From Patescibacteria group bacterium (GTDB taxonomy: Bacteria > Patescibacteriota > Patescibacteriia > Patescibacteriales > UBA12465): a DNA stretch of 64,000 nt. Under the pieces are notes generated by a model, which did no database searches, was not told where the DNA came from, and was given only the letters and a program-made list of their open reading frames with translations. Positions 2,902-56,802 of this stretch are shown here, in pieces. Numbering within the stretch: position 1 is the first letter of the stretch; each line of letters begins with the position of its first letter. The translations under genes and the position numbers were made by a program. The DNA lies in the NCBI GenBank assembly GCA_041651095.1, contig JBAZJV010000005.1, positions 1,160 through 65,159 on the forward strand, given 5' to 3'.

Positions 2902-4095
2902 TTATTTATGAACCGTCCGTTCTTTTTTCCTGGCTGATCGAAAGCTTTCATCGAATATTTCATAGTAATCGCCATAAATATATTTCTGTCCATAACTCTC
3001 CTCTCCTAAAGGCTCCAGAATTTTCATCCCTCTTAAACGGTCTATGACCTTATAGGCGCCGGGTGCCGTAAAACCGGACCATCTGGCTATTTCGGCTACG
3101 CCGACAATCGGCTGACTGAATAATTTGCGAATTATTTCCAGGGTCGGGGCGGCGGCTCGCGCGCCCAGCTGCTGGGCCTTGGCAAAGTCCCGGTCTCGCA
3201 AACTGGTGATCTGGGCGCAAGTTTCTATGGCCGACTGGGCTATTTCCGCCACTCCTTCCAGAAAAAAATCAAGCCAGGCGGCGACTTGCGCCTCTTCCTC
3301 GTGATAGGCCTGCAATTTCTGGTAATATAATTTTTGATATTTCTTAAAATAGCTGGATAAATATAAGACTGGCAAATCCAGCAAGCCGGCATGATGGATG
3401 AACAAAGCAATCAGCATCCGTCCGGTCCGGCCGTTACCGTCGGTAAAAGGATGGATAGTTTCAAACTGAGCATGCAGCAGCCCGGCCTTCACCAAAGACG
3501 GATAATCATCGGCGGCATGGATGAATCGCTCCAGGTCGTTAAGAGCCACTTGCATATCAGCCGGCGGCGGCGGGACAAAAGCGGCGTCGGACGGAGTCTT
3601 GCCGCCGATCCAATTCTGCGAACGGCGAAATTCACCCGGATAAGCGTGCTGGGTGGCTCTGGCGCCTTGCATTAATTTAGCATGGACTTCGCGTATCAAT
3701 CTTAAAGATATCGGCAAATCCTTAATCCGATCAGTGCCGTAATTTACGGCTTCCACATAGTGCAGGATATCATCAACATCCGGAGCCAACCTGGACTTTT
3801 CTTCCGTCACTGCTTCGGCGATAACATCCTGTAAGGTCGCTTTTGTGCCCTCGATCTGGCTGGAATAAGCGGCGTCTTTCTTGATGAACATTAACAGAAA
3901 AAAATCTTTATCCGGCAAAAGGCGGGTAATGCCGTCTAATTTGCCGACCAGCCTGATCGCTTCTTCATGTTTCTTATGCAGTTTCGAGGAAATAAAAATA
4001 CCCTCTTGAGGAGGAAAGGGATAAGGAATAAAAGCCGGATAACCGTTCTTTTGCTGGATATAGCGGCCGATTTTTATTTTGTTTATATCTTCCAT
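2902..4095 (-). CDS. Fic-family protein (AMPylase type) with N-terminal Fic_N region and C-terminal wHTH
   Basis: 397 aa. Canonical Fic motif HPFTDGNGRTGR. Upstream inhibitory-helix-type motif SSQIEG ([ST]xxxE[GN]). C-terminal HTH-like segment (VGVAEIARWSGFTAPGAYKVIDRL). Confidence 0.9.
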   Translation of the reverse strand: MEDINKIKIGRYIQQKNGYPAFIPYPFPPQEGIFISSKLHKKHEEAIRLVGKLDGITRLLPDKDFFLLMFIKKDAAYSSQIEGTKATLQDVIAEAVTEEKSRLAPDVDDILHYVEAVNYGTDRIKDLPISLRLIREVHAKLMQGARATQHAYPGEFRRSQNWIGGKTPSDAAFVPPPPADMQVALNDLERFIHAADDYPSLVKAGLLHAQFETIHPFTDGNGRTGRMLIALFIHHAGLLDLPVLYLSSYFKKYQKLYYQKLQAYHEEEAQVAAWLDFFLEGVAEIAQSAIETCAQITSLRDRDFAKAQQLGARAAAPTLEIIRKLFSQPIVGVAEIARWSGFTAPGAYKVIDRLRGMKILEPLGEESYGQKYIYGDYYEIFDESFRSARKKERTVHK

Positions 4096-4169: not shown

Positions 4170-5045
4170 TTAAACAAGATTTAAACGGTCATTAATCTCG
4201 TCCACCGAGCCATGAAAAGCGCCTTTCCCTTCCAAGGACATCGTGGCGGCCATAGCCGCAAAGCGCCCCTGTTCTGCTGGATCTTCGAACAACTCCCTGG
4301 CCCGCAAGAAAGCGGCCATATAGGTATCGCCGGCGCCAGTCGTATCTGCCAGCTGTCGCGGCGGGAAAGCCGGAATGCGGTAATAATCATGGCCGATGAA
4401 CAAATGCGAGCCCAGCGAGCCTTCGGTAATGATCAGATTCTTCAATCCTTTAGCTTGCAAAAAGCGGGCGGCCTCCATGATATTGTTTCGCCCGGAAACG
4501 AAATAGGCTTCTTCGCGATCTAGAAACAAATAATTCAAGAACGGCAGGACGCGGTGCAGATTCTCTGGATTCTGGCGGACCATTTTCCCGTTTTCGCTGT
4601 AGGTAAACATCCCGAAGTTGTCCATCGCCGTCAATTTATGGCTCAGCCGTTTGAATAGATTAAAATCTATATCGTCATGGAATAGCGGACCGAAGATTAT
4701 CCAATCGAAGTGTTCCAACACCGCCAACAATTCCTCTGTCGCGACTATTGGATTGGAATACGGCTCGATAAAGCTATCACGGACGTCGGGATTATTGCTT
4801 GAATAAGCGATATTAGAAATCAGCGTATGGTCGGCGGGCAGGAAATTAACAGCTAGGTCGGAAAAATTTTCTTTCACCCAGTCCTTGTCCTCAACGCCGC
4901 AAGCGACATAGGGCGCGACTTCCTGGGCGCCCAAAGCCTGGAGCGCCCGGCCGACATAATAGGGAATGCCGCCGATCTGGACAGAAAGTCGACCGTCTAT
5001 TTTGACTTTATCTTTGGCGATCGGGCCTAAGATAGCTGCGGTCAT
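4170..5045 (-). CDS. PfkB-family carbohydrate/nucleoside kinase
   Basis: 291 aa. C-terminal DTTGAGDTYMAAFL (PfkB signature 2 with the catalytic Asp) and N-terminal GG-containing motif (IGGIPYYVGRAL). Confidence 0.85.
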   Translation of the reverse strand: MTAAILGPIAKDKVKIDGRLSVQIGGIPYYVGRALQALGAQEVAPYVACGVEDKDWVKENFSDLAVNFLPADHTLISNIAYSSNNPDVRDSFIEPYSNPIVATEELLAVLEHFDWIIFGPLFHDDIDFNLFKRLSHKLTAMDNFGMFTYSENGKMVRQNPENLHRVLPFLNYLFLDREEAYFVSGRNNIMEAARFLQAKGLKNLIITEGSLGSHLFIGHDYYRIPAFPPRQLADTTGAGDTYMAAFLRARELFEDPAEQGRFAAMAATMSLEGKGAFHGSVDEINDRLNLV

Positions 5046-5050
5046 AAATA

Positions 5051-5971
5051 TTATTTTTCTACTTCTACCGTCCGGCCTTTGGCGGTCGCGCTGATCCCCT
5101 GCCCGTCCGCCGGATCGACCTTGAAACTAATGCTTTCGCAATTCTTCATGGTCTCACCGAAATTTTCTTGCAGGAAGTGCAAGAAAGAATTCTCATGGCT
5201 GAAAGCCAGGACCTTGATATTTTTCTCCGGACCCTGCTCATTTATTTTCTGCTGGCCGAAGCGGATGAGCCGCATCATGTCTTTGAACTTAGTGTCATAG
5301 GCAGCCTTAGCCGATTTAACGGCCGGGAAAATTTTCTCTATTTCCGCAGAATGAGCAGCGTAGTTGTTGCCCCAGCTGCCTTTATCATCCGCTTCGATTA
5401 TCTGCCTGGCCTCGCGCCATTTCTGTCGCGTTTCTCCAGAGACTGTCGCCGTATCTTTCACGACTTCTTTTAAGATGTCTCGATTGGACGCGAAAACGAA
5501 TTCCTGCAGCATATTCTCCAGATGGTCTAACGTCAAGCTGTCTATTTTCCGGATATTGCCCTCGCCTATCTCCTCCGCTTTGTCGCGATAATTGCCGGCT
5601 ACGGCTTTCTCTCGCGGCTTGATAATCTCAAAGCCTCTGGCTCGCGCCTCGTCCAGATAAATCTTGGCCGTTTCCGCCGCCCGGACCAGATCGCTGGAAA
5701 CGAAAAACAAGGCGTCTTTGGCCGGATCGAGACGATTGAAAAACTCCTTGGCCTTTTCTTGCGCCAGTTTGAGGCCTTCCGGCGTCAGATCAGAATTGAA
5801 CCACTGCTTATCGGCGCTCGGCCTGGCTTCCGGATAATCTGAGCGAATAATGCTTTCATTCAGCTTATACTCCGCCAAGCTGTGCCGGGTGGCAAAAAAT
5901 TCGTCCTGATGGTCATCAGATCTTTTCTGGGCGTTGCCGGTTTCCAGATTGGCATTTTCAAATTTAGCCAT
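5051..5971 (-). CDS. histidine-phosphatase-superfamily (PGAM-like) protein, divergent, with a large insertion
   Basis: 306 aa. RH in FATRHSLAEY, LTPEGLKLAQEKA (like LTxxGxxQA), VSSDLVRAAETA (like SSPLxRAxQTA) and late FSHENSF (second His). Lies 5 nt upstream of the PfkB kinase gene. Confidence 0.55.
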   Translation of the reverse strand: MAKFENANLETGNAQKRSDDHQDEFFATRHSLAEYKLNESIIRSDYPEARPSADKQWFNSDLTPEGLKLAQEKAKEFFNRLDPAKDALFFVSSDLVRAAETAKIYLDEARARGFEIIKPREKAVAGNYRDKAEEIGEGNIRKIDSLTLDHLENMLQEFVFASNRDILKEVVKDTATVSGETRQKWREARQIIEADDKGSWGNNYAAHSAEIEKIFPAVKSAKAAYDTKFKDMMRLIRFGQQKINEQGPEKNIKVLAFSHENSFLHFLQENFGETMKNCESISFKVDPADGQGISATAKGRTVEVEK

Positions 5972-6065: not shown

Positions 6066-7289
6066 TTATAACCCCAACCTCTCCGCCACGTAATCGATGT
6101 CCTTATCGCCCCTCCCGGACAAATTCACGATGATAATTTCGTCCTTCCCTAGCTTAGGCGCAAACTTTATGGCGTGCGCCAAGGCGTGCGCGCTTTCTAA
6201 AGCCGGAATGATGCCCTCTACCTTAGACAACAATTGGAAGGCCTCAAGCGCCTCCTGGTCGCTGGCCGTGACATACTCTACCCGGCCGCAGTCTTTGAGA
6301 TCGGAATGTATCGGCCCCACGCCCGGATAATCCAAACCGGAAGCGATGGAATGCACCGGCAAAGGTTCGCCTTGCTCATCCTGCAATAAATAGGTGAACA
6401 TGCCGTGGATATTGCCCGGCTGCCCCATGGTGAGCGTGGCGGCGTGCTCGCCCGGCTTGAAGCTCCGGCCGCTCGGCTCCACGCCGATCATCTTGACGTA
6501 GTAATCCGTTAGAAATTCGTTGAACAGGCCGATGGCGTTGGAACCGCCGCCCACGCAAGCAATGAGATAGTCCGGCAAGCGGCCGGCCTGTTCCAGGATC
6601 TGCACCCTGGCTTCCCTGCCGACCACGGATTGGAAATCGCGCACCATCATCGGGAACGGATGCGGACCCACGACCGAACCGATGCCGAAAAAAATATTTT
6701 GCGGATCCTGCACGAAAGCCATAAATGCACTATCGACCGCATCCTTCAAACAGCGGCCGCCCGCCTTGACGGCGACCACTTTGGCGCCTAAGAGCTGCAT
6801 GCGGATAACGTTCGGATGCTGCTTGGCGATATCGATTTCACCCATGTGGATCTCGCATTCAATGCCGACCAAAGCGGCCGCCGTGGCCAAAGCGACGCCG
6901 TGCTGGCCGGCGCCGGTTTCCGCTATCAACTTTTTCTTCCCCATGCGTTTAGCCAGTAGCGCCTCGCCCAAAGTATGATTGATCTTATGCGCGCCGGTGT
7001 GATTCAGGTCTTCCCGCTTCAGATATATTTTCGCCCCGCCTAAGCGTTCCGACAAATTCTTGGCATAGTATAGCGGCGACTGCCGACCCACATAGTCTTT
7101 CAGGAGCTGTTCATATTCCGCGCGGAAAGCCGGATCGGCCTGCGCTTTATGATACTCGACCGCGATCTCATCGAAGATCGGTTTCAGTTCCGGCGGAATT
7201 ATCTGTCCGCCGTACTTCCCAAAATAGCCGGCCGCGTCCGGCAAGGCCCGGAAAGCGACCTGGTCTTTAGTTTTAGTATTATTGTTCAT
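6066..7289 (-). CDS. trpB: tryptophan synthase beta chain
   Basis: 407 aa. PLP-lysine context [14 protein letters not shown], plus [16 protein letters not shown] and GLDYPGVGP blocks. No trpA adjacent. Confidence 0.95.
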
Positions 7290-42252: not shown

Positions 42253-43209
42253 TTAATAGTCCAAAAATGATTGAAAAATTTTTTTAATTTCCGCCAGGCT
42301 TTTGACCTGCACTAGCTGGGCCCGCAACTTAGCCGCGCCGGGCAGACCCTGCATATACCAGACCAGATGCTTCCTAAATTCGATAATGCCGCTCTCGCCT
42401 TTCTGCCGCTCTTCCATGGCCGCCTGCCGGAGAGCGATCTGAAAAATCTGCCGCGGCCGCAGATCGATTGCCCGGTCAGATTTGATCTCTTTGAACAGCC
42501 AGGGCCGTCCTAATACGCCGCGCGCCAAGCCCAACCCGTCCGCGCCGGTTGCCTGAAGGGCGTACCTCGCGTCCGCCAGACTGTTAATACCGCCATTAAC
42601 CAAGAAGATGCCGGAAAATCGCCGGCCGGCTTCTTTGGCTAAAGTCCAATCCGGTTTTCCGGCAAAGCCCTGGCTCAGGCTCCGGCCGTGGATCATCAAG
42701 GCGGCGATCGGCAAATCGGCGATATTTTTTACGAAATCAACAGCTTCGACGGCGCCGGCCTTGGTTCTGATCTTTACGGAAACCGGCAACTGGGTATTGG
42801 ACAGGACCGCCTCAATAGCGGCTCGCGACCGCTTCAGGTCTTTCATCAGTCCCGCGCCGGCTCCCTGCCGGACAATTTTCGGTACCGGACAGCCGAAATT
42901 GATATCCAGGCCGTCCGGCTTTATTCGACTGGTGATGATGCGGGCGGCGGCGGCAAAATGCGCCGGTTCGGCGCCGAACAGCTGGACCACATAGTATCTT
43001 TCCTTGGTTCGGTTGAATTTCAACAGTTCCAAGGTAGCATTAGCTTCCGCTCTCCTCGCCGCCCGCCCGGTTCGCGTCGGTTTCGCCGAAGCGACGCGAT
43101 CCAAACCGCTATAGAACAAAGCAGTCGCCGAAGCCATCTCGCTATATAAAACATCCGCCCCGTAACTTTTGCAGACCTGGCGGAAAGCGGCATCCGTGAA
43201 GCCGGCCAT
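42253..43209 (-). CDS. dus: tRNA dihydrouridine synthase (true start probably upstream, non-AUG)
   Basis: MAGFTDAAFR..., GCPVPKIV, IHGRS. The conserved LAPMAGxTD strand begins before the first ATG, and the frame is open for 25 more codons (to 43284) without ATG, GTG or TTG. Confidence 0.85.
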   Translation of the reverse strand: MAGFTDAAFRQVCKSYGADVLYSEMASATALFYSGLDRVASAKPTRTGRAARRAEANATLELLKFNRTKERYYVVQLFGAEPAHFAAAARIITSRIKPDGLDINFGCPVPKIVRQGAGAGLMKDLKRSRAAIEAVLSNTQLPVSVKIRTKAGAVEAVDFVKNIADLPIAALMIHGRSLSQGFAGKPDWTLAKEAGRRFSGIFLVNGGINSLADARYALQATGADGLGLARGVLGRPWLFKEIKSDRAIDLRPRQIFQIALRQAAMEERQKGESGIIEFRKHLVWYMQGLPGAAKLRAQLVQVKSLAEIKKIFQSFLDY

Positions 43210-44319: not shown

Positions 44320-45729
44320 CTAGGCTTTGCTGATCCGAACCCCCTCCGGCCCGTCCTCTACGGCGTAGCCGGCTCGTTCTATTTCCTGGCGCAAGCGGTC
44401 GGCCTCCGTCCAATTGCGCTCCGCCCGAGCCGCCTGGCGCTCATCGATCAATTTTTGGATCTCAGCACTGACCGCGACGGGCGCGGGTTCTAATTTCAAC
44501 CCTAAAACCCGGTCAAAATCCAGGATGGTCGCTAATTTGTCCGGATTGCTCAGATCAGATTTTAACATTTCGTGGGCGACGGCTAAGGCTTGCGGCATAT
44601 TCAGATCGTCATTAACGGCCAGCAAAAACAAATGCCGGTAATGCTCGTCGATCCGACCCTGGGGCCATTTCCATTTTTTCTGATCTTGATCATATTCGCC
44701 GAGACTGCTCACTTGGTTATACAGTCCGGCCAAACCGTTTCGCGCCGAACTAATCGCGTCTTCGCTGTATTCCATCGGCTTGCGGTAATGGGTCTGCAAC
44801 GCGGCGTAACGATAAGCCAAAGGGTTGACGCCCGGCTTAATAAAAGCGTTTTCCAGAGTCAGAAAATTATTGCCGCTCTTGGCCATCTTCTTGCCGCCGG
44901 CGATATTCAAGAAAGCGCCGTGCAGCCAGTAGTTGAAAAACTTCTGCTCGGTCGCGGCCTCGCTTTGCGCGATTTCGTTGGTATGGTGGACATTGATATG
45001 ATCCACGCCGCCGCAATGAATGTCCAGCTGATCACCCAGGAATTTCAGGCTCATGGCCGAACACTCGATGTGCCAGCCCGGAAAGCCGACACCCCAGGGC
45101 GAAGCCCACTCCATCTGGCGTTTGGCGCCGGCTGGCGAGAATTTCCATAAGGCGAAATCGGTCGGATTCCGTTTCTCTGGATTCTTTTCCACCCGCGCTC
45201 CTTCCTTCAATTCAGCCAGCGGCAAATGGCTCAGTTTGTTGTAATCCCTGATCTTGGACGTATCAAAATAAATGCCGTCGGAGGTGCGATAAGTATAGCC
45301 CTTTTTTTCTAGGGCCTTAACCAGGGCAATCTGCTCGGGAATATTGTCCGTCGCCCGGCACCAGATCTGCGGCGCCTCGATATTCAAAACCGCCAGATCA
45401 CGCTTAAAAGATTCGGTATAGAAAGCGGCGATATCCCAGGCGCTTTTCCCTTCCCGCGCCGCGCCTGCCTCCATCTTATCCTCGCCCATGTCCATATCGC
45501 CGGTCAGGTGGCCGACATCGGTGATATTCATGACCTGCTTCACCCGATAACCGTTATACTCTAAAGTCCGTTTCAAAAAATCCTCAAACAGATAGGTCCG
45601 CAGGTTGCCGATATGAGCGAAGTTATAAACGGTCGGACCGCAAGTATAGAGGCCGACTTCCCCCGCTTTGGCCGGCCGGAACTCTTCTTTTTTCCGCGAG
45701 AGGGTATTGTATAAAAAAATAGGGGTCAT
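44320..45729 (-). CDS. cysS: cysteine--tRNA ligase
   Basis: 469 aa. CGPTVY, HIGN (HIGH), KMAKSGNN (KMSKS). Confidence 0.96.
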
Positions 45730-47479: not shown

Positions 47480-47836
47480 CTAGCGGACGGCGGGCTGGCG
47501 GTCGTGGATCAGGGTGTTGCTGAGCCAAGCCCCCAGCCAGAGCCAGAGCGACAGCCAAATCGCGGTCCACAGGCCATCGACTCTGAAACCCTGAACGATA
47601 CTGGCTGCCAAGAGGACCAGCAAACCGTTAATTATCAGGGTAAACAGGCCAAGAGTCAGAATATTTATCGGTAAAGTCAGAATAACCAGGATTGGCCGGA
47701 TAACCGCATTGATCAGTCCTAAGATAATGGCGGTGACTAAAGCGGCCCAGAGACCGGAAACAACCACGCCGCTAATGATAAACGGAGCTAATAATAGAAA
47801 TAAAATATTAATAATGAAACGGATGATAAATTTCAT
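47480..47836 (-). CDS. four-TM membrane protein of the phage-holin-4/DUF360 type
   Basis: 118 aa. Pattern LINAVIRPILVILTLPINILTLGLFTLIINGL typical of that family. Confidence 0.7.
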   Translation of the reverse strand: MKFIIRFIINILFLLLAPFIISGVVVSGLWAALVTAIILGLINAVIRPILVILTLPINILTLGLFTLIINGLLVLLAASIVQGFRVDGLWTAIWLSLWLWLGAWLSNTLIHDRQPAVR

Positions 47837-47939
47837 ATACTTGGCGAGTTAATTGATTATAGCTTTATTTTAGCATATTTCGCCAAAAAAATCATTTTAA
47901 TCTTAAAATAGCTTATATGGTGGGATATCACTCAATTTA

Positions 47940-47968
47940 TTGACTATTTTACTAATTTTTAGTATTAT
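47940..47968 (+). promoter_or_regulatory. promoter TTGACT-17-TATTAT
   Basis: -35 at 47940-47945, 17-nt spacer, -10 at 47963-47968, upstream of the xylose-isomerase-like gene. Confidence 0.6.
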
Positions 47969-48038
47969 CAAAGGTTATGCAGTTCTTAAACAATGCCTCT
48001 TAAAAGAGGAAAATAATCACTAAACGAAGGAGGTGCTT

Positions 48039-49199
48039 ATGGCACTAAGATCAGGCGCTTTATGGACAGTTCGCTATCGAGGCAGCGATCCGTTCGGCGG
48101 GCCAGTATTAAAAGGGTTATCAGCTATCGAGGGTCTTAATTTATTAGGAGAAGCTAAACAAGCGGGCGCAATCGACATGTTTTCGGCCCACGATGATGAT
48201 TTAGTAGATTACGACCCGATGAAGCCTTTGGATTATCTTGATCCCAATGATCCCATCCACGAAAAAATATCGGAAATCAAAACGACTATGACGAAATGGG
48301 ATCTGCCCATGCATATGGCGACCTGTTCTCTGCATGGCCATCCGGTGTTCACCGCGGGTGGATTTACTAACCGTAATCCTGAAATTCGTAAACTAGCTCA
48401 GGAAAAAGCCAAACGCTGCGCCTGGATCGGTAATCAACTTGGCGCTACCATGGCTACCTACTGGGTGGCTAGAGACGGTTTCGAATCTCCGCCTACAGTC
48501 AATACCGATCTTGATAACTGCCCATACTCCTGGCTGCGGGAAGCCTTAAACGGCATCAGTGAAGAATGTATTTCAAAAAACTATTCCATTAAAGCCGCAA
48601 CTATTGAGCCAAAAGTAAATGAACCGCGCGGCTATATGTACCTGCCACTGGTCGGCTCCGCGATCGCCTTTATTGACCGTTTGAAATATCCAGACTTCTG
48701 GGGTGTCAATCCGGAAGTACCGCAACATAGCAGCATGGGCAATCAATCCCCGTTCTTGGAAATCATGCAAGCGGCATGGATGGGCAAATTAAACTTCTTA
48801 CACGTTGGCGGTCAAATTCCCGGGCAGTTCGATGATGACTTCCCGTTGTTATTCGGGCCCGGCAAGGAAGAAATGATTAATATCATGCTCTACCTTGACC
48901 GCATCGGCTGGAAAGGAGTTATCGAATTTGATTGCCATCCGTTACGTAGCGACCTCACCGCTATGGTCGGAGAACAAAGGGACATTTTCTATCAATTTCT
49001 AAATTACAATAACCGGATGTTAAAATTGATAGAAGTGATTGTTGAACGCCTGAAAAACAACCAGGCTTTTAATGATTCTCTACAAGAATTAAACAATGGT
49101 CTAAACGGCCGCCAGAATCATCTGAAAGTTGAAGAAGCCTTCAACATGGCGCTCTTCAATGTTAGTCTGGAAGAACTTAAAATTGTAAATTACGTTTAA
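48039..49199 (+). CDS. xylose isomerase-like protein (class I length, divergent metal site)
   Basis: Start placed at ATG 48039, 8 nt after SD AAGGAGG. LWTV...DPFG, AHDDDL, IEPKVNEPRG, NPEV, FDDD and EFDCHP line up with actinomycete XylA as I recall it. Confidence 0.7.
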   Translation: MALRSGALWTVRYRGSDPFGGPVLKGLSAIEGLNLLGEAKQAGAIDMFSAHDDDLVDYDPMKPLDYLDPNDPIHEKISEIKTTMTKWDLPMHMATCSLHGHPVFTAGGFTNRNPEIRKLAQEKAKRCAWIGNQLGATMATYWVARDGFESPPTVNTDLDNCPYSWLREALNGISEECISKNYSIKAATIEPKVNEPRGYMYLPLVGSAIAFIDRLKYPDFWGVNPEVPQHSSMGNQSPFLEIMQAAWMGKLNFLHVGGQIPGQFDDDFPLLFGPGKEEMINIMLYLDRIGWKGVIEFDCHPLRSDLTAMVGEQRDIFYQFLNYNNRMLKLIEVIVERLKNNQAFNDSLQELNNGLNGRQNHLKVEEAFNMALFNVSLEELKIVNYV

Positions 49200-49302: not shown

Positions 49303-49926
49303 ATGGATAATATGCGCCAAATCATTATTGGTACCAAAAACCAGGCTAAATTCGCACAAATGCGGGACGCGCTCCGTCCTTTAGGCTTAGAAGCGGTCAT
49401 GCCTGAAGATCTGCCGGAAGTGATAGAAGACGGCGAAACCAACCAGATTAACGCCAGGAAAAAAGCTTTGACCTATGCCCGTTTCCTTAACGACGCGGTC
49501 CTATCAATGGACAACGCCTTATATTTCCCGGACCTGCCGGCTGACGAGCAGCCGGGCCAGAATGTCCGCCGCATCAAGGGACGGATAGACCGGCCGAGCG
49601 ATAACGAAATACTGGAATATTATCGCGATTTGATCGACCGCTACGGCGGCGAAATCAAAGGGCGTTGGGAGTATGCTATTTGCCTGGCCAGACCGGACGG
49701 CCAGTATTGGGAAACGACCGTGAATTCCGAGCGAACTTTCGTTAGCCGGCAAAGTGACAGTATCATGGCTGGCTACCCGCTTGAATCATTGCAAATCGAC
49801 CCAAAAAGCGGCCGACCATTGGCCAGTTTGCCGGAAGAGGATAGACGCCGCCTCATGTCCCAACGGATCAGCGGACCGCTCCAGGAATTTATCAAGGCTA
49901 CTTGGCTGGCGGAACCGGAAATATAA
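49303..49926 (+). CDS. Ham1/RdgB-like non-canonical purine NTP pyrophosphatase
   Basis: 207 aa. N-terminal IIIGTKNQAKFAQMRDAL resembles the Ham1 ATxNxxKxxE motif. The remainder is divergent. Confidence 0.55.
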   Translation: MDNMRQIIIGTKNQAKFAQMRDALRPLGLEAVMPEDLPEVIEDGETNQINARKKALTYARFLNDAVLSMDNALYFPDLPADEQPGQNVRRIKGRIDRPSDNEILEYYRDLIDRYGGEIKGRWEYAICLARPDGQYWETTVNSERTFVSRQSDSIMAGYPLESLQIDPKSGRPLASLPEEDRRRLMSQRISGPLQEFIKATWLAEPEI

Positions 49927-49996: not shown

Positions 49997-50024
49997 TAAA
50001 AAATGGCCTCTGGGGCCATTTTTC
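49997..50024. terminator. bidirectional intrinsic terminator
   Basis: ATGGCC-tctgg-GGCCAT flanked by an A-run and a T-run, between the Ham1-like gene (+) and tRNA-Val (-). Confidence 0.7.
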
Positions 50025-50026
50025 AA

Positions 50027-50103
50027 TGGTGGTCGTTAGTGGATTCGAACCACTGACCTCCGCGATGTGAACGCGGCGCTCTAACCAGCTGAGCCAAACG
50101 ACC
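50027..50103 (-). tRNA. tRNA-Val (anticodon CAC), CCA encoded
   Basis: Manual cloverleaf: acceptor GGTCGTT/AACGACC, D-stem GCTC/GAGC, anticodon stem CCGCG/CGCGG with loop TTCACAT, T-arm AGTGG-TTCGAAT-CCACT, then A-CCA. Confidence 0.95.
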
Positions 50104-50105
50104 AT

Positions 50106-50136
50106 TTAAAACCCCGCCGTAACAACCAGCGGGGTT
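50106..50136 (-). terminator. hairpin plus short U-run immediately 5' of tRNA-Val
   Basis: Minus strand: AACCCCGC-(11 nt)-GCGGGGTT then TT-AAAT. It follows the stop of the 166-aa gene. Confidence 0.45.
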
Positions 50137-50187
50137 ACACACACGAGACGTAGAATAACGTCTTAAGGTGGGTTTAATCGCGCGAAA

Positions 50188-50688
50188 TTAGGCTGAAACT
50201 AAACTTTTTTGATAACTGTCTTTCCAGAATTGGAAAGCGGTTCCCGGCTTCAGATTCTGCGGCAAACCGCAGACCAGCCGGAGGATAGTCAAGAATTCCT
50301 TTTGGTAGTCTTCTTCGAACATATACACCGAAGAGAGTTTTAAATCATAGAGAGAATGTTCTTTGTATTGATCTTGCAGTACGTCAAGACAGTCTTTATC
50401 AGCGCAGCACCATAATTTGCCCAGAGCCGTAAAAGCGACGAATTGCGCCGGATGGCCGCAATAAGTACAAATCGATTTGACTGGTAGGTTTTCGCCGGCC
50501 GCGGAGATGAAATCTAAATGCTGCAGGGCTTCCGGGCAGCAATCAAATTTCTTGATCGCGGTAAAAATTTTCGGTTCGGTCAGGGCTAAAACATCCAAAC
50601 ACTTTCCGGCAAACATTCCTAAATGCTTAAGATCGGGAAAATAGAAGGGCGCCTGAGGCGTCGACGATGCCGCTCCGTTACTTTTCAT
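50188..50688 (-). CDS. hypothetical Cys-rich protein (paralogue A)
   Basis: 166 aa, SD GGAGG. Blocks HLDFISAAGENLP, CTYCG and WCCADKDC are shared with the neighbouring gene. Confidence 0.65.
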   Translation of the reverse strand: MKSNGAASSTPQAPFYFPDLKHLGMFAGKCLDVLALTEPKIFTAIKKFDCCPEALQHLDFISAAGENLPVKSICTYCGHPAQFVAFTALGKLWCCADKDCLDVLQDQYKEHSLYDLKLSSVYMFEEDYQKEFLTILRLVCGLPQNLKPGTAFQFWKDSYQKSLVSA

Positions 50689-50714
50689 GGTTAACCTCCA
50701 AATTAGTTGATTGA

Positions 50715-51224
50715 TTATTTTTTGATGCTTATACTGTTTTGATAGTGATCTGCGAATAGCGCCAAAATTTGTTTGGGGTTGGCGTGCCGGGACAAGCCAA
50801 TGATATTCTTCATGAATTTGGCGGCCTGCTGCTGTTCGGGCGGACGATTACTTAAAAGGCATAGAGTCCTTAAGCTGATCGGATAAATAATTCCCTGTTC
50901 ATCATGATTATTCGCTGCATGGGTCCGATTGATCAGCTTGGTCGAACAATGAAAATCGGCGCAACACATCATATCGTATCTGGCCTTCCCATTTTTAATG
51001 GTAAATTGAACAACTTTATGCCGGCCGCAAAAACAATAAGGTATGGTTGGCAGATTTTCACCGGCGCTGAACAAAAAATTGAGATGTGAGACTAAAGCGC
51101 AATCCGGCGATCTTAGCAAACTGATCGCGGCGGCCGGATCCTGAAAAATAAGAGTTTCGACTGCCTGACCCTCATATCGACCTGAGGACAGAAAATAGGG
51201 TTGTTCGGGAATCTCTGAAATCAT
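50715..51224 (-). CDS. hypothetical Cys-rich protein (paralogue B)
   Basis: 169 aa from ATG 51224 (SD GAGGAG). Blocks HLNFLFSAGENLP, CFCG and MCCADFHC. The track ORF extends to 51359 only by reading through tRNA-Leu. Confidence 0.65.
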   Translation of the reverse strand: MISEIPEQPYFLSSGRYEGQAVETLIFQDPAAAISLLRSPDCALVSHLNFLFSAGENLPTIPYCFCGRHKVVQFTIKNGKARYDMMCCADFHCSTKLINRTHAANNHDEQGIIYPISLRTLCLLSNRPPEQQQAAKFMKNIIGLSRHANPKQILALFADHYQNSISIKK

Positions 51225-51281
51225 AGAACTACTCCTCGTATAGATTGATGGATGATATTGTTTATTAATGAACCAGAACGG

Positions 51282-51365
51282 TGCCCGAGGGGGGATTTGA
51301 ACCCCCATGGGATTGCTCCCACAGCGCCCTGAACGCTGCGTGTCTACCAATTTCACCACCCGGGC
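51282..51365 (-). tRNA. tRNA-Leu (anticodon CAG), CCA not encoded
   Basis: Manual cloverleaf: acceptor GCCCGGG/CTCGGGC (one G-U), anticodon stem CAGCG/CGCTG with loop TTCAGGG, long variable arm TGGGAGCAATCCCAT, T-arm GGGGG-TTCAAAT-CCCCC, discriminator A followed by CCG. Confidence 0.93.
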
Positions 51366-51411
51366 GTTTTTATCGATTCTATATGATTACACAAAATAAA
51401 AAATTTGTAAA

Positions 51412-51780
51412 TCACGGCAGAACCTTCTTGATTTCGGCGACGATTTTCTCCAAATCCCAGTCGCTTTTGACGAAATAGCGGGCCACCCAATTGGTCAAAG
51501 CGGCCGAGATCTTTTCCTTACTGCCGGAATTTGACAGCATCATGACTATGATGTCATTGCCCCAGTTGGCGGCGCGGATTTTTTCCAGCATGGTCAGACC
51601 GTCCATCTTCGGCATCTTGATATCGCAAAGGATGAGATCTGGCCGGTGCTTTTCGGCCAAGTCCAAGCCTTGGATGCCGTCGTAGGCGGCTAAAACCTCG
51701 AAACCGGCTTCCTTCAGCTTGATACTCAAAGCTTGTACTAATTGGATTTCGTCTTCGACGATGAGAATTTTTTTGCTCAT
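51412..51780 (-). CDS. response regulator, stand-alone receiver domain
   Basis: 122 aa. ILIVEDE, phospho-acceptor context LILCDIKMPKMDG, and a conserved Lys region near the C-terminus. The start overlaps the kinase stop by 4 nt. Confidence 0.88.
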   Translation of the reverse strand: MSKKILIVEDEIQLVQALSIKLKEAGFEVLAAYDGIQGLDLAEKHRPDLILCDIKMPKMDGLTMLEKIRAANWGNDIIVMMLSNSGSKEKISAALTNWVARYFVKSDWDLEKIVAEIKKVLP

Positions 51781-54062
51781 ATTTTTATGCGCTTAATTTT
51801 AGTTTTTTTATTTGTCACGCTACGAGCGGCAGGCTCTCCGGCCGCCACGACGCCAGCGGTCTGATTAACCGCCGTCCGGGGCACTTCCTCAATCAGATAA
51901 TGATCGCCCTTCCTCGGCAGGGAGAAATAAAAGGTCGATCCTTTGTTCTCCGCCGATTTCAACCAGAGCTCGCCGCCGTGCGCTCTGACGATTTCCCGCG
52001 CGATATAGAGGCCGAGGCCGGTGCCATCGGGGTCCCGCAGGGCGGCGTTAGCGGCCCGGAAGAATTTCTCGAACAGGCGCGGCTGCTGCTTCAGCGGAAT
52101 GCCGATGCCATGATCCTGAACCGAAAAGATGACCCGGGACGGCTTGAGCGAGGCGGCAAGATGAATCTGTTTGCGCTGACCGCCATATTTGGTTGCGTTG
52201 CTGAGTAAATTCTGCCAAACCTGCCGGAGCTTGTCCGGATCGGCGTAAACGGCCAGATCGGCGGGGACGTCGTTAATCAGCCGCAGGCGGCGCGTGGTCA
52301 GCAAATGCAGATTCTCGGCGACCGCCTCCTTGATCAAATCATTCACCGGTAAATTCTTCTTGACCAGGGTGAACTTACGCCCGGTCTCGATATGGGAAAC
52401 GTCCAGGAGGTCGTCGACCAGACGGATCATCTTGCGGTTGCTGGTAGCGATTTGGCGCAAGAATTCCTGCTGCTCAGCGGTCAGGTTCCGGGACTTGTTC
52501 CCCGCCAGGAGCTCGGTGAACCAGCGGATGCTGGTAAGCGGCATACGCAATTGGTGGGACGCGATGCTGATGAACTCGTCCTTGGTCTTGTCCAGCTTCT
52601 GGAGCATCTCGTTCTTTTCCTGAAGCTGGGCGGTGGCCTTTTTGATTTCCCGCTTCAATTTGACGTTGAAACGCTTAACCCGCTGATATAATAAGGCGTT
52701 CTCCAGGGCGATGCTGATTTCGACGCCGACGGTCTCCAGGACTGCCAAATCTTGCTTATTATAGCTTTCGCCCGACTCCTTCGCGCCTAAAAACAACAAA
52801 TAAGACAATTTCTTCTTGAGGCTTATCGGCACGATGACGTCGACCGGCAATTTGCCCAGCCGGTTCAGGAAATGGGAAAACTGGCGATCGGGCGATTTAT
52901 TGATGCTCTTGACCGTGAGCGGCCGGCCGGCGGCGAACAGCAGATTTAAAGTATGGTAATCCAAAAACATCTTGGCGCGGCGGCGGCAGTGGAAACCGTT
53001 ATTATACAACACCGGCCAATACTGCAAATCTTCCGCGCAGCCGAGCGCGGCCATGGCCCGGCTATGGAAGGCGGGCATGACGATATTGGCCATGGAGCGG
53101 AAAATCCAACCGACATCCAAAGAGGCGCGCAAACGGCTGTTCAGGTTATAGATCAATTCCTGCACGTCATAAAGCGAGGAAAAGAAATATTTGTTGGATA
53201 ACTTATAATATTCATCTTTCAAGGGCGGGAAAGCCAGTAAAGACAAGAACAGCAGGAAAAAATAGGCCGGCACCAGATAGCGCGGAAACAGCTGATAGAA
53301 AAAATTCAGCCAAATGGCCACCGGAATCAGGATAGAAACGAAAGATAAGGCGTAGACCAGATAGCGCCGCATGATGAATTTGACGTCCAGCAGCTGATAG
53401 TAGACGATGGCGTAGGTAATCAGGACGCAAAAAACGATCGGCGAAATCAAAGCGACCGGATAAACGGCGATGCCGTAAGCCGGCAGATAGGCCAGGGCGC
53501 CGACCAGATTCAGGAAAGCGAAGGCAATGACATAATAGACGGCGCGCACCCGCTCTTTCCGGTCCTTGCTCTGCCAACGATAATGGATAAAGTTATATAG
53601 GAAAGCGAAAATGTAGAAAAAGAAGAAAGCCAGAAAAAAGTGATGGCCGAGCTGCGCCCGAGTATGGGCGCCCCACTGGTAGTGGAACACTTCATCGACG
53701 AAATAAGGCGTCCGGCTGAGCAGCAAGAAGCAGATGGACAGGGCGTAAGCCAGCCACATCAGGGCACGGCGGCGGCGGTTATAGAAAGTGGCGGCTAGGG
53801 AAAAATGATACTGAATAGCCGGCACGAAAACCACGCCCAAATAAACAAAGCGGTCCCAGAAGATAATCTGATAATCGCTCCGGGAAACGAACATCATGAA
53901 AGTGCCGAATTCCCAGACGGCAAAAACGATGGTGACGGCGAAAAATAACCGGTGCAACGTCAATTGGCGGCCTTTCCGTAAAACAAAAACGCCCAAAAAG
54001 ATAATGAGGGCCAGGCTGACGAGCGGAAAGAAATCAGTTAAATGCAAACTGAAATTGGACAT
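51777..54062 (-). CDS. sensor histidine kinase with polytopic N-terminal membrane domain
   Basis: 761 aa. About 8-9 TM helices, H-box SHQLRMPLTSI, N-box NLLSNATKY, and G-boxes DHGIGIP and GTGLGLYIA. Confidence 0.88.
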   Translation of the reverse strand: MSNFSLHLTDFFPLVSLALIIFLGVFVLRKGRQLTLHRLFFAVTIVFAVWEFGTFMMFVSRSDYQIIFWDRFVYLGVVFVPAIQYHFSLAATFYNRRRRALMWLAYALSICFLLLSRTPYFVDEVFHYQWGAHTRAQLGHHFFLAFFFFYIFAFLYNFIHYRWQSKDRKERVRAVYYVIAFAFLNLVGALAYLPAYGIAVYPVALISPIVFCVLITYAIVYYQLLDVKFIMRRYLVYALSFVSILIPVAIWLNFFYQLFPRYLVPAYFFLLFLSLLAFPPLKDEYYKLSNKYFFSSLYDVQELIYNLNSRLRASLDVGWIFRSMANIVMPAFHSRAMAALGCAEDLQYWPVLYNNGFHCRRRAKMFLDYHTLNLLFAAGRPLTVKSINKSPDRQFSHFLNRLGKLPVDVIVPISLKKKLSYLLFLGAKESGESYNKQDLAVLETVGVEISIALENALLYQRVKRFNVKLKREIKKATAQLQEKNEMLQKLDKTKDEFISIASHQLRMPLTSIRWFTELLAGNKSRNLTAEQQEFLRQIATSNRKMIRLVDDLLDVSHIETGRKFTLVKKNLPVNDLIKEAVAENLHLLTTRRLRLINDVPADLAVYADPDKLRQVWQNLLSNATKYGGQRKQIHLAASLKPSRVIFSVQDHGIGIPLKQQPRLFEKFFRAANAALRDPDGTGLGLYIAREIVRAHGGELWLKSAENKGSTFYFSLPRKGDHYLIEEVPRTAVNQTAGVVAAGEPAARSVTNKKTKIKRIKI

Positions 54063-55325: not shown

Positions 55326-55949
55326 ATGCTTAATCTGGACGTGGAAAAACAATACTTCGAACTCGGCTATCAGCTTATCGGCGGGGTGGACGAAGCCGGC
55401 CGCGGCCCCTTGGCCGGACCGGTCGTGGCCGCCTGCGTGGTCATCGGGCCGGATTTTAAAATAGACCATCCGGATCTGGAACTGGTCGCCGACTCTAAAA
55501 CCCTGAACCCCAAGAAACGAGAACGCTTATTCCGGATTATCCGCGAAAAAGCCAAGGCCGTGGAAATCGGCGTCGTTGATAACGCCACGATAGACAAGAT
55601 CAATATCCTGCAAGCCAGCTTCCTGGCCATGCGGCGGGCGATCCGGCAACTCAGCGTCAATCCGGACTACATCCTGCTCGACGGCGGCTTCAAGATCCCG
55701 AAACTGGACAAGCCGCAGACCGCTATTGTCAAAGGCGACAGCCTGGTCTGGGCCATTGCCGCCGCCTCGATAATCGCCAAGGTAAGCCGCGACTATCTGA
55801 TGGCGGAAATAGACAAGCAGTACCCGCAATACGAATTCGCCAAGCACAAAGGCTACGGCACCAAACTGCATTTCGCCAAAATAAAAGAGCTGGGCCCCTG
55901 CCCGCTCCACCGCCAGAGCTTCAGTCCGATCAAGGAATTAAAAAAATAA
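55326..55949 (+). CDS. rnhB: ribonuclease HII
   Basis: 207 aa. GVDEAGRGPLAGPVVAA, DSKTL, KGDS, AASIIAK. Confidence 0.95.
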   Translation: MLNLDVEKQYFELGYQLIGGVDEAGRGPLAGPVVAACVVIGPDFKIDHPDLELVADSKTLNPKKRERLFRIIREKAKAVEIGVVDNATIDKINILQASFLAMRRAIRQLSVNPDYILLDGGFKIPKLDKPQTAIVKGDSLVWAIAAASIIAKVSRDYLMAEIDKQYPQYEFAKHKGYGTKLHFAKIKELGPCPLHRQSFSPIKELKK

Positions 55950-55989: not shown

Positions 55990-56283
55990 TCAACTTAATT
56001 TAATTTCCAGCCGGCCGCCCAAAGCGGCCACTACTTTATCCAAAAAAGTAATCGTAAAGTTCTGTTGTCCGCTTTCCAAACGGGCGATATTACTCTGTGT
56101 CGTACCGATCTTCTTAGCCAGGGATCTCTGGCTAATCTTTTTCTTTTTGCGCAGTTGTAAAAGGCTATAAGCCAACTCCAGTTGCCGGCCATATTCATCA
56201 AAAAGACGTTTGAATTCGGGATTTTTCAATTCTTGAGCCAGGATTGTATCAAGGTCATCGGCTTTGAATATTTTCTTCTTCAT
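55990..56283 (-). CDS. XRE-family HTH antitoxin (HigA-like)
   Basis: 97 aa. HTH KISQRSLAKKIGTTQSNIARLESGQQN. Lies downstream of, and overlaps, the toxin gene. Confidence 0.8.
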   Translation of the reverse strand: MKKKIFKADDLDTILAQELKNPEFKRLFDEYGRQLELAYSLLQLRKKKKISQRSLAKKIGTTQSNIARLESGQQNFTITFLDKVVAALGGRLEIKLS

Positions 56284-56650
56284 ATAATTCAGCGCAATTG
56301 TTAATTATTTCATAATAACGTCCTAAGGCCGTATTAATTTCTCGCGGCGGCGTTTTGTCTACTTTCTTCAAAAAAGCATGCAATATAACTATCGTCCGAC
56401 CAATGAAACAAAAATATAATAGGCGATGATGATGATTAGAAAAATCTACCCTAAGCTCTCTGATGCCGCTAACTATATGTCGGCTGTATGGTTCGTCTAA
56501 ATAACCGCCATGATCACGCAAATATTCAAGGTATTTATATATTTTAGTTCTTTGCCGGTATTCAAGATGGTGAATATAATCTCTAACCGGTCTATTACCG
56601 GTGCGACTATTACGATAAAACTTAATTCTATATTTTTCATTATATATCAT
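56255..56650 (-). CDS. RelE/ParE-superfamily toxin of the HigB/Gp49 (DUF891) type
   Basis: 131 aa. IKFYRN...GNRPVRDYI...GIRELRV...HRLLYFCFIGRTIVILHAF.KK pattern. Toxin-first gene order, with a 29-nt overlap with the antitoxin. Confidence 0.75.
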   Translation of the reverse strand: MIYNEKYRIKFYRNSRTGNRPVRDYIHHLEYRQRTKIYKYLEYLRDHGGYLDEPYSRHIVSGIRELRVDFSNHHHRLLYFCFIGRTIVILHAFLKKVDKTPPREINTALGRYYEIINNCAELYEEENIQSR

Positions 56651-56661
56651 ATATGATATAT
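56642..56661. promoter_or_regulatory. perfect 20-bp palindrome ATATATCATATATGATATAT over the toxin start codon (candidate operator)
   Basis: Self-complementary over all 20 positions. The toxin ATG (56650-56648) lies inside it. Confidence 0.5.
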
Positions 56662-56802
56662 GTCAATATAAACAAAAGTGGCGATTTTGCCGGCTGGCAT
56701 ATCCAATCTAACAAACCAGACCTTAAGAACAGCTTAAATATTTTTAAAGATCGGGTATCAAGGAAGCGGTCGCCGGAATAACTATCAAAAAAAGCCGCCA
56801 TA

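Follow-up and report, generated by a model that had tools for sequence, protein, structure and literature searches.

Two small cysteine-rich proteins encoded one behind the other between two tRNA genes raise the question of what such proteins do, and whether they belong to the locus or arrived there as cargo of a tRNA hotspot. The DNA analysed, referred to here as the window, is a stretch of 64,000 nucleotides from a Patescibacteria group bacterium. The cassette and its borders comprise the following features.

51383..51411, minus strand: promoter-like TTTACA-17 nt-TG-AATCAT directly upstream of tRNA-Leu, from a consensus scan
51280..51365, minus strand: tRNA-Leu(CAG), the first gene of the cassette (ARAGORN; Rfam, 49.9 bits)
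51232-51237, minus strand: SD box GAGGAG of copy 1, 7 nt 5' of the ATG
50715..51224, minus strand: copy 1, 169 aa, pI 8.7, matching the deposited protein WC453_03375
50695-50699, minus strand: SD box GGAGG of copy 2, 7 nt 5' of the ATG
50188..50688, minus strand: copy 2, 166 aa, pI 6.1, matching WC453_03370
50110..50144, minus strand: GUGUGUGU tract and GC-rich 10-bp hairpin with a short U-run, 7 nt 5' of tRNA-Val
50027..50103, minus strand: tRNA-Val(CAC), the last gene of the cassette (ARAGORN; Rfam, 70.3 bits)
49997..50025, minus strand: intrinsic-terminator-like hairpin of 12 pairs with a T-run, which closes the cassette
49303-49926, plus strand: Ham1-like gene, converging on the terminator-like hairpin

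The layout first described in a sequence-only reading of this DNA, with tRNA-Leu, the 169-aa and 166-aa open reading frames (ORFs), the hairpin and tRNA-Val all on the minus strand, was borne out at these coordinates, and the SD boxes of both ORFs are read directly from the sequence. The two tRNA genes, each backed by Rfam, are the only ones detected by ARAGORN in the 64-kb window. In the mechanical ORF list, copy 1 runs to a GTG inside tRNA-Leu; the ATG was adopted instead, giving a protein of 169 aa, because an SD box is present and the result agrees with the NCBI-deposited protein. The cassette is also AT-richer than its surroundings, as had been noted, although modestly so: its GC content is 44.6% against a window mean of 49.7%, and local GC across the window itself spans 35% to 59%.

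Copy 1 and copy 2 are genuine protein genes and old tandem paralogues. Their homology, already claimed from the sequence, is supported by BLASTP (E=1e-13), with 24% identity over the full length. Neither protein has a match in Pfam, NCBIfam, PHROGs or PADLOC and both are labelled 'hypothetical' by NCBI, in agreement with the initial statement that no family was recognised. A word-indexed protein search with each ORF returned only the query itself. The family surfaced only when 1.84 billion representatives were searched exhaustively with HMMER, which gave 96 clusters at 50% identity, and the possibility that conservation ends at this genome is thereby set aside. Members are all ~160-220 aa in length and are matched over their full length; the family HMM recovers copy 1 at E=3.8e-44 and copy 2 at E=3.5e-35. 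Spurious ORFs are ruled out by this conservation together with a confident predicted fold. An alignment-based locus search returned no relatives in GTDB representatives and no window-clade relatives in JGI metagenomes; with a tighter group-A alignment, 5 loci were recovered. Judged by its sequences, the family is a rare, unannotated group of small proteins with a predicted zinc ribbon, found in Patescibacteria-type genomes and metagenomes.

The family is basic, with a median pI of 9.4 and a pI >9 in 78 of its 105 members. Copy 2 is acidic (pI 6.1), carries a short Gly/Ala/Ser-rich N-terminal extension and differs from the family consensus at a number of conserved sites, E32D, F36L and P75T among them. 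The acidity and the departures from consensus of this copy count against a reading of the family as an adaptor.

The AlphaFold model of copy 2 has a pLDDT of 92.8 and a pTM of 0.86; an earlier structure prediction from a 2-sequence alignment, with a pLDDT of 65, was set aside. No whole-fold match to the model was found by Foldseek in the PDB or BFVD, and the partial matches are small zinc fingers only (DUF7455, ZZ, B-box and RING), each extending over 40-55 residues. The cysteine pattern remarked upon in the two ORFs recurs throughout the family, with C74, C77, C95 and C100 invariant in 105 of 105 sequences. The two conserved cysteine pairs are brought together in the predicted fold, where residues 72-107 are modelled as a β-hairpin plus helix. 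The earlier suggestion of a zinc-ribbon-type C4 site is consistent with the invariant cysteines, with this modelled module and with the Foldseek zinc-finger matches. The first knuckle of copy 1 is CxC, which is unusual, as most members have CPxC. In copy 1 the order is an N-module resembling the ExoX C-terminus, the C4 zinc ribbon (CxC...CCxxxxC) and a helical C-domain. Each protein is predicted to form one compact domain, in which the ExoX-C-type N-module is joined to a structural Cys4 ribbon and a C-terminal helical bundle.

The N-terminal ~40 residues follow the consensus PYxFxSGKxxGxxxExLMFxDxxxLxWL. Among the members, the one Pfam family that turns up repeatedly is ExoX-like_C (PF20600), which five of them match at E<=0.01. 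One member (P0104) scores 28.7 bits, above the gathering score of 26.5, whereas four others (P0090, P0101, P0103 and P0105), at 20.8-23.7 bits, and P0048, at 14.1 bits, fall below it. Copy 1 and copy 2 have no match in Pfam even at E<=10 and do not reach the PF20600 gathering score. Positions 16-55 of the 105-sequence profile align to residues 166-205 of E. coli ExoX, TFTFGKYRGKAVSDVAERDPGYLRWLFNNL, with a hmmsearch E of 5e-6 for this single target and 69% in hhalign. The family N-module is homologous to the ExoX C-terminal motif G-K-x-x-G-K...D-x-x-Y-L-x-W-L, and the window proteins are tied to it by transitivity, through the family HMM. A DUF3820-like N-terminus, suspected at the outset, therefore holds at the level of the family (PF20600; ExoX 166-205) and fails for the window proteins themselves, which are without a Pfam match. 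It has been reported that ExoX 1-167 keeps its exonuclease activity (PMC3753628), and for this reason the C-terminal region of ExoX is regarded as non-catalytic.

The opposite end of the protein carries a second motif in other branches of the family. QLxLF/QLxLxL ends 19 of the 22 members that possess a C-terminal tail of at least 12 aa, against 0.1 expected for shuffled tails, and is present in 24 of 105 members overall; it ended none of 303 unrelated ORFs of the fetched DNA. A C-terminal QLxLF is the consensus for binding to the β-clamp (PMC4549789). In clamp-binding proteins the motif, QL[SD]LF or QLxLxL, usually stands at the very C-terminus behind a flexible linker. The window proteins are without the β-clamp motif and end in ...QNSISIKK and ...QKSLVSA, both modelled by AlphaFold within the terminal helix. 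Because these copies are without it, tethering to the clamp is indicated by the motif only, and in other subfamilies only. A degenerate clamp motif in the C-termini of the window clade or in the N-terminal extensions of copy 2 was considered but is not claimed, as the similar stretches (QNSISI, QITIPT) lie within core secondary-structure elements.

The cassette of tRNA-Leu(CAG), one to three copies, hairpin and tRNA-Val(CAC) is found in four other genomes (L006, L007, L008-10 and L011-13). In all four it occupies the same chromosomal position, beside a divergent RNase HII. Downstream of it come holin_4_2 and, on contigs that are long enough, CysRS, with Dus and TsaD in some. The orthologues of copy 1 in these genomes are 33-46% identical. 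The tRNA-Leu is nearly identical and in the same position in L006, L007, L008/L009 and L011/L012, and tRNA-Val is in the same position in L006, L008, L010 and L011. Paralogue number varies from 1 to 3 per genome, and copy 1 and copy 2 represent old paralogue lineages, not recent gains.

Genes of DNA and nucleotide metabolism recur near members of the family. RNase HII is the neighbour in the window clade and a Ham1-like gene in the window. In L026, RarA lies directly upstream, followed by dCMP deaminase, ThyX, Tmk and MazG. NUDIX is directly adjacent in L003 and L031, and the other neighbours include an HD-domain protein (L029), an ATP-cone protein (L032) and RadA (L025). No neighbours of replication, repair or dNTP type were found in groups B and E, and MnmA is a neighbour in group B. 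As a raw tally over ~10 independent contexts, with categories assigned after the fact, these neighbours are suggestive of a role in replication or repair. The translation-related neighbours of the clade (tRNAs, CysRS, Dus, TsaD, MnmA) fit an RNA or translation role equally well.

Taken together, sequence motifs and gene neighbours hint at a function connected with the DNA replication clamp but do not prove it. The family may represent a non-catalytic adaptor, associated with nucleic acid or with the replisome, in DNA replication or repair; this is the preferred reading, although it is a tentative one, with the balance tipped slightly against it. In other lineages the same core is extended by a disordered K/P/E-rich linker ending in QLxLF/QLxLxL, which would tether the family to DnaN. 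The window lineage has lost the clamp-type tail, or never possessed it. In place of the tail it retains one to three paralogues, and these may form a heteromer. The genomes of Patescibacteria (CPR) are reduced, and many classical accessory factors of replication and repair are missing from them. A clamp-docking adaptor might, for example, link the replisome to RNase HII or to pathways of nucleotide sanitation. In its fullest form, the proposal describes Patescibacteria-specific zinc-ribbon adaptors that dock on the β-clamp, are built on the orphan ExoX module with a fold absent from the PDB, and serve replication fidelity or repair; in one lineage they would have been captured into a tRNA operon and expanded to one to three tailless paralogues, perhaps working as a heteromer. 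This composite is rather unlikely to be correct in every part. If true, a lineage-specific adaptor tethered to the clamp would help to explain how replication fidelity is organised in Patescibacteria. The outcome is a solid annotation of a new family with a testable functional lead, and is not field-changing.

Among the alternatives, a translation- or tRNA-related factor survives best. It could be, for example, a small zinc-finger protein with a translation GTPase (in the manner of FusB), the ribosome or tRNA as its binding partner, and it would be co-expressed with tRNAs as tufB is. The position between two tRNAs, the probable co-transcription with tRNA-Leu, the basic character of the proteins and the proximity of CysRS, Dus and TsaD in the clade and of MnmA in group B all agree with this, as does a marginal profile match to the FusB/Far1 zinc finger (E=0.04; hhalign P=3e-4). 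However, against a 7-sequence FusB-family alignment built from plasmid records, the match amounts to 38.6% in hhalign and is confined to the zinc finger. With the 105-sequence profile it is absent at E<=1, FusB is not among the best 50 Foldseek matches in the PDB, and the Pfam families listed for members include no FusB-family model. Homology to FusB as an EF-G-binding protein was rejected, the similarity being that of zinc ribbons in general. The association with tRNAs is likewise restricted. On the earlier question of whether homologues are always duplicated and always next to tRNAs, those of the window clade lie between tRNAs in one to three copies, and the more distant members are solitary and not beside tRNAs. 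Since no tRNA is adjacent in the members examined outside the clade (L001-5 and L021-27), the tRNA link is one of lineage-specific synteny. The C-terminal QLxLF tail and the ExoX-derived module also point to DNA, and a translation factor is considered improbable.

A small zinc-ribbon regulator, such as a transcription factor, an anti-sigma-like factor or a two-component partner, would make use of the Q-x-x-L-F tail for docking of another kind. In four contexts (window, L002, L006 and L025) there is a response regulator or histidine kinase no more than 5 kb away, and in the window a receiver-only response regulator ends 47 nt before tRNA-Leu on the same strand. Small basic zinc-ribbon proteins with no evident catalytic motif would suit such a function. 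In the closest relatives (L007, L008 and L011), however, this position has no two-component genes, so that those of the window seem to have been inserted between RNase HII and tRNA-Leu. Neither an HTH nor any other known domain for reading DNA was detected in the family, and the tail closely fits the clamp consensus, as a pentapeptide and as a hexapeptide. There is little probability of a regulator on these grounds.

The idea of the tRNA neighbourhood as a landing site for accessory functions, with the two genes as defence or anti-defence cargo or a mobile-element remnant, draws on the tRNA-flanked position, a GC content ~5 points under the window mean, a copy number of 1 to 3 that varies between genomes and a weak Foldseek similarity between the zinc ribbon and DUF7455 proteins of phages, but is largely refuted and very improbable in view of orthologous cassettes at one chromosomal position in five genomes (all related genomes found), the age of the two paralogue lineages, and searches that returned no integrase among the cassette neighbours in the window, no att-like repeat of the tRNA 3' end beyond short chance-level repeats, no PADLOC or PHROGs match and no relatives in INPHARED phages, IMG/VR or PLSDB. 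The embedding between tRNAs is local synteny passed on by vertical descent and does not mark a horizontal insertion or an island.

The hairpin and U-run noted 5' of tRNA-Val have a 10-bp stem, and the 87-nt spacer that contains them folds at -30.9 kcal/mol (z=-3.8). The arrangement of UGUGUGUG, hairpin and U-run recurs in L006, L008 and L011 with differing stem sequences, and the hairpin is likely a weak terminator or a stabiliser of the mRNA 3' end. The promoter-like site before tRNA-Leu is a consensus match only; in the alignment, TTACAA...TATAAT is present upstream of tRNA-Leu in L006 too. The consensus scan found no promoter-like site between tRNA-Leu and copy 1. The cassette ORFs are probably transcribed from the putative promoter upstream of tRNA-Leu; the mRNA would be released by tRNA processing and could be shielded by the conserved 3' hairpin before tRNA-Val. 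The tRNA-mRNA-hairpin-tRNA unit would be a neat natural case in which protein genes are expressed, and their mRNA probably matured, by way of tRNA processing.

Several known systems resemble the family in part. The N-module is of the 'FGKYKG...YLxWL' type found in the C-terminal region of ExoX (PF20600, kin to PF12843/DUF3820). In contrast to ExoX, the module is N-terminal, is packed into a larger domain with the zinc ribbon and helical bundle, and is accompanied by no DnaQ exonuclease domain; the window copies are too divergent for the Pfam model. In the family, the orphan ExoX C-terminal/DUF3820 module is found in a second setting that is tractable, and its combination with a clamp-binding-type tail provides a directly testable hypothesis for the function of that module.

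Four subfamilies have the canonical layout of β-clamp binders (Pol II, Pol IV and many IS transposases), in which a disordered basic linker leads from a folded core to QLxLF/QLxLxL at the end. The core has no polymerase, nuclease or transposase domain, and the two window proteins are tailless. YabA of Bacillus, a small Zn-binding protein with DnaN and DnaA as partners, forms a coiled-coil tetramer and has its zinc domain at the C-terminus. It may serve as a functional analogue only, as a small non-enzymatic zinc protein docking on the sliding clamp; no similarity to the family in sequence or architecture was detected. FusB/FusC (Far1; PDB 4adn, 2mzw) has a C4 zinc finger of like spacing, CxxC...V.F...C.D..C...L. 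Its N-terminal four-helix bundle and the β-rich part of its C-domain are without counterpart, and the family does not belong to FusB.

The E. coli tRNA-tufB operon joins a protein gene to tRNAs in one transcription unit, and the mRNA is freed by tRNA processing. The ORFs described here similarly share a putative transcription unit with tRNA genes. Unlike tufB, they encode a protein that is not a known translation factor, and they have a tRNA on either side and a conserved hairpin behind them.

Two co-oriented ORFs encoding Cys-rich proteins, copies 1 and 2, lie between two tRNA genes on the minus strand, the only two tRNAs that ARAGORN detects in the 64-kb window. The elements of this cassette are the following.

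51383-51411: promoter-like site directly upstream of tRNA-Leu
51280-51365, minus strand: tRNA-Leu(CAG), by ARAGORN and Rfam
50715-51224, minus strand: copy 1, 169 aa from ATG, between both tRNAs
50188-50688, minus strand: copy 2, 166 aa, between both tRNAs
50137-50144, minus strand: UGUGUGUG tract before a hairpin
50027-50103, minus strand: tRNA-Val(CAC), by ARAGORN and Rfam
49997-50025: strong terminator-like hairpin, end of the unit

ARAGORN, Rfam and the ORF coordinates agree with the arrangement described in the sequence-only reading, and its SD boxes are present 7 nt before each start (GAGGAG for copy 1, GGAGG for copy 2). A mechanical ORF list prolonged copy 1 back to a GTG within tRNA-Leu; the ATG start agrees with the 169-aa protein deposited at NCBI, where both copies are annotated as ‘hypothetical’. 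The homology reported between the two ORFs is confirmed by BLASTP (E=1e-13, 24% identity end to end) and, by this alignment, they are paralogues. The cassette is AT-richer than its surroundings, as had been observed (44.6% GC vs 49.7% for the window), but this is unremarkable because local GC spans 35-59%.

Neither copy has a match in Pfam, PADLOC, PHROGs or NCBIfam, even at E<=10, or among PDB sequences, and a word-indexed search of 5.8 billion proteins retrieved only each copy itself. The earlier failure to recognise a family is thus borne out. When 1.84 billion cluster representatives were searched exhaustively by HMMER with a two-sequence profile, 96 came back at E<=1e-3. Their lengths run from about 126 to 311 aa, mostly 160-220 aa, and the match covers almost the whole sequence in nearly every one. 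In the alignment of all 105 sequences collected, C74, C77, C95 and C100 (copy-2 numbering) are invariant and form CPxC...CCxxxxC. P11, P14, Y15, G24, G28, E32, F36 and H57 are conserved in at least 77%, and L58 and W60 are largely kept as hydrophobic and aromatic positions. AlphaFold with a 62-sequence alignment predicts a confident single domain (pLDDT 92.8, pTM 0.86) with short N-terminal helices, a beta-hairpin zinc ribbon plus helix (~residues 72-107) and a C-terminal helical bundle. The zinc-ribbon assignment holds on both the invariant C4 and the modelled hairpin and helix. The family is real, rare and new, with a novel combination of known modules. Its median pI is 9.4, exceeding 9 in 78/105 members; copy 1 has a pI of 8.7 and copy 2 of 6.1.

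PF20600 (ExoX-like_C) is the only Pfam family recurring among members, at E<=0.01 in five (best 8.2e-7), and one protein, P0104, scores 28.7 bits, above the gathering score of 26.5. Another, P0090, has the N-terminus MPFGKYKGKSL. Positions 16-55 of the 105-sequence profile align with residues 166-205 of E. coli ExoX, TFTFGKYRGKAVSDVAERDPGYLRWLFNNL (hmmsearch E=5e-6 with one target; hhalign 69%). The proposed ‘DUF3820-like’ N-terminus is therefore upheld for the family through PF20600 and ExoX, but not directly for the window copies. ExoX 1-167 retains exonuclease activity, and the module that the family shares with the ExoX C-terminus is therefore non-catalytic; crystallisation of the full-length protein was not achieved (PMC3753628).

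The closest relatives of the cassette occur in four other genomes or metagenome contigs, including contigs of 373 kb and 678 kb, and their copy-1 orthologues share 33-46% identity with window copy 1. In all four, a divergent RNase HII gene is followed by tRNA-Leu(CAG) and the family gene(s). Beyond these, where the contig is long enough, come tRNA-Val(CAC), then holin_4_2 and CysRS; some also have Dus and/or TsaD. The window has these common flanking genes.

55326-55949: RNase HII
47480-47836: holin_4_2
44320-45729: CysRS
42253-43209: Dus

There, RNase HII is separated from tRNA-Leu by a shikimate-DH-like gene, a 7TM histidine kinase and a receiver-only response regulator, and tRNA-Val from the holin gene by a Ham1-like gene and one for a xylose-isomerase-like TIM barrel, all of them additional, inserted genes. 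The suggestion that the tRNAs serve as a landing site for accessory functions is not supported: the synteny is shared with four relatives, the cassette region holds no integrase or att-like repeat, and no relatives were found in phage, plasmid or IMG/VR records. Judged by gene order, the tRNA cassette is inherited synteny.

Paralogue number is one in L006, two in the window and in L008/L009, at least two in L007 (contig end) and three in L011, all loci of relatives with the cassette. The copy-2 proteins of L007, L009 and L011 share a Gly/Ser/basic N-terminal extension, with 34-50% mutual identity and 20-29% to copy 1; the duplication is therefore older than these genomes. Window copy 2 has only 17-28% identity to everything else, so that any orthology assigned to it is tentative. 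In the third tandem paralogue of L011 (7223-7729) the N-terminus is highly basic (MDTKSRRPKRPRKK) and the fourth Cys of the zinc site is missing; this copy may be either degenerating or using an alternative ligand. Short non-polar C-termini are seen in several window-clade orthologues (copy 2 ...SLVSA; P0003 ...AIALAA; P0005 ...LALAS; P0007 ...VLLAS). The ends ALAA, LAS and VSA resemble ssrA-type degrons, a likeness that might point to regulated proteolysis or be meaningless. In the other subfamilies the members stand alone, with no adjacent tRNA in their contexts (L001-5, L021-27). The window clade shares its location near CysRS-Dus-TsaD with group B, a subfamily with a C-terminal clamp-type tail; the two are probably positional orthologues.

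A 17-nt direct repeat (14/17 identical; 47519-47535 and 50088-50104) links the 5′ part of tRNA-Val with a site in the holin_4_2 gene. It brackets the Ham1-like and TIM-barrel genes, absent from related loci, the expected place of an insertion scar, and is probably due to chance. The 35% GC stretch at 47600-48200 covers the holin_4_2-like 5′ end, an intergenic region and the TIM-barrel start, the two genes being divergently oriented around it. A Gp49-like protein (PF05973, HigB-type toxin family; 56255-56650, minus strand) lies in an AT-rich patch (GC 35-40%, ~56000-56800). It possibly belongs to a toxin-antitoxin module, and the patch is possibly a better candidate than the cassette for horizontally acquired DNA. 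In only one of the contexts seen is a neighbour of mobile-element type: in L033 (711-1433, minus strand), next to a group-A member, PF01797 (IS200-like Y1 transposase) matches weakly, below its gathering score.

A promoter-like site upstream of tRNA-Leu is found in L006 as in the window; none was found between tRNA-Leu and copy 1, which are 55 nt apart, and copy 2 follows copy 1 after 26 nt. The hairpin with short U-run noticed 5′ of tRNA-Val is present, with counterparts throughout: a UGUGUGUG tract, then a GC-rich hairpin and U-run, follows the last paralogue in 4/4 loci examined, the stems differing in sequence with pairing kept. Outside the window, the tract is placed as follows.

L006, ~6600-6640: UGUGUGUG tract before hairpin
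L008, ~3368-3410: UGUGUGUG tract before hairpin
L011, 7779-7816: UGUGUGUG tract before hairpin

That the tract is conserved hints at a role beyond simple termination, perhaps as a site of processing or protein binding. The U-run of the window and L006 is short and tRNA-Val begins a few nt further, which suggests read-through. Transcription would continue into tRNA-Val, and the RNase P cut would leave an mRNA with a hairpin-protected 3′ end. The TATAAT-like stretch 3′ of the hairpin in L008 and L011 means that tRNA-Val may own a separate promoter there. Directly 3′ of tRNA-Leu, a small hairpin-forming trailer, GTTCTC(R)GTTCTTTGAGAA, occurs in L007 (~4742-4770), L008 (~2017-2045) and L011 (~5933-5960) and is absent from the window by alignment; it may be a tRNA 3′-processing or attenuation element.

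No catalytic feature is apparent in the family. The window clade neighbours RNase HII, and in the window a Ham1-like gene is also nearby. RarA is immediately upstream in L026, followed by dCMP deaminase, ThyX, Tmk and MazG. A NUDIX gene adjoins a member in L003 and L031; further neighbours are RadA (L025), an HD-domain protein (L029) and an ATP-cone protein (L032). Replication/repair-type genes stand at +1 or -1 in ~4-5/10 independent contexts, a post hoc count without a proper background, and the pattern is only suggestive. Because a basic zinc-ribbon core, an ExoX-derived module and a clamp-type tail (in four subfamilies) accompany these neighbours, the family is tentatively proposed, at slightly under even chances, to be a non-enzymatic adaptor in DNA replication or repair. 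A translation-related role, for which context alone speaks, is improbable. The tRNA context made FusB/Far1, an EF-G-binding fusidic-acid resistance protein, an attractive lead (62-sequence profile, E=0.04, zinc finger only). Homology was rejected with seven FusB-family sequences assembled from plasmid records: hhalign gave 38.6%, limited to the finger, the match was lost with the 105-sequence profile, and the Foldseek top 50 in PDB did not include FusB.

Four contexts, drawn from three subfamilies, have a response regulator and/or histidine kinase no more than 5 kb away from the family member.

Window, 51412-54062, minus strand: response regulator/histidine kinase
L002, 1758-3882: response regulator and/or histidine kinase
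L006, 793-1473: response regulator and/or histidine kinase
L025, 911-3203: response regulator and/or histidine kinase

The receiver-only gene of the window is on the strand of tRNA-Leu, with 47 nt between its stop codon and the tRNA. Two-component genes are missing at this position in L007, L008 and L011, and the proximity may therefore be coincidence.

The C-terminal tail extends at least 12 residues past the core in 22 members and is K/L/E/P/S-rich. The clamp-type motif ends 19/22 of these tails, with 0.1 expected from shuffled tails, and 24/105 members overall; among 303 unrelated ORFs (100 aa or longer) from the DNA fetched for analysis, none ends in it. Copies 1 and 2 are without such a tail, and their acting at the clamp is doubtful. 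The clamp-binding lead of the family is testable, and the gene unit is a conserved tRNA-mRNA-tRNA. The hexapeptide beta-clamp motif QLxLxL is established for Hda and Pol IV; six-residue endings in the family include QLKLEL, QIKLNL and QTKLSL. Five-residue endings include QLNLF, QLKLF, QLYLF, QLLLF, QLDLF, QLSLF, QIRLF and QQRLF. At the level of sequence, the tail endings match QLxLF, the consensus by which bacterial proteins bind the beta clamp and which usually lies at the C-terminus (PMC4549789; PMC12309361).
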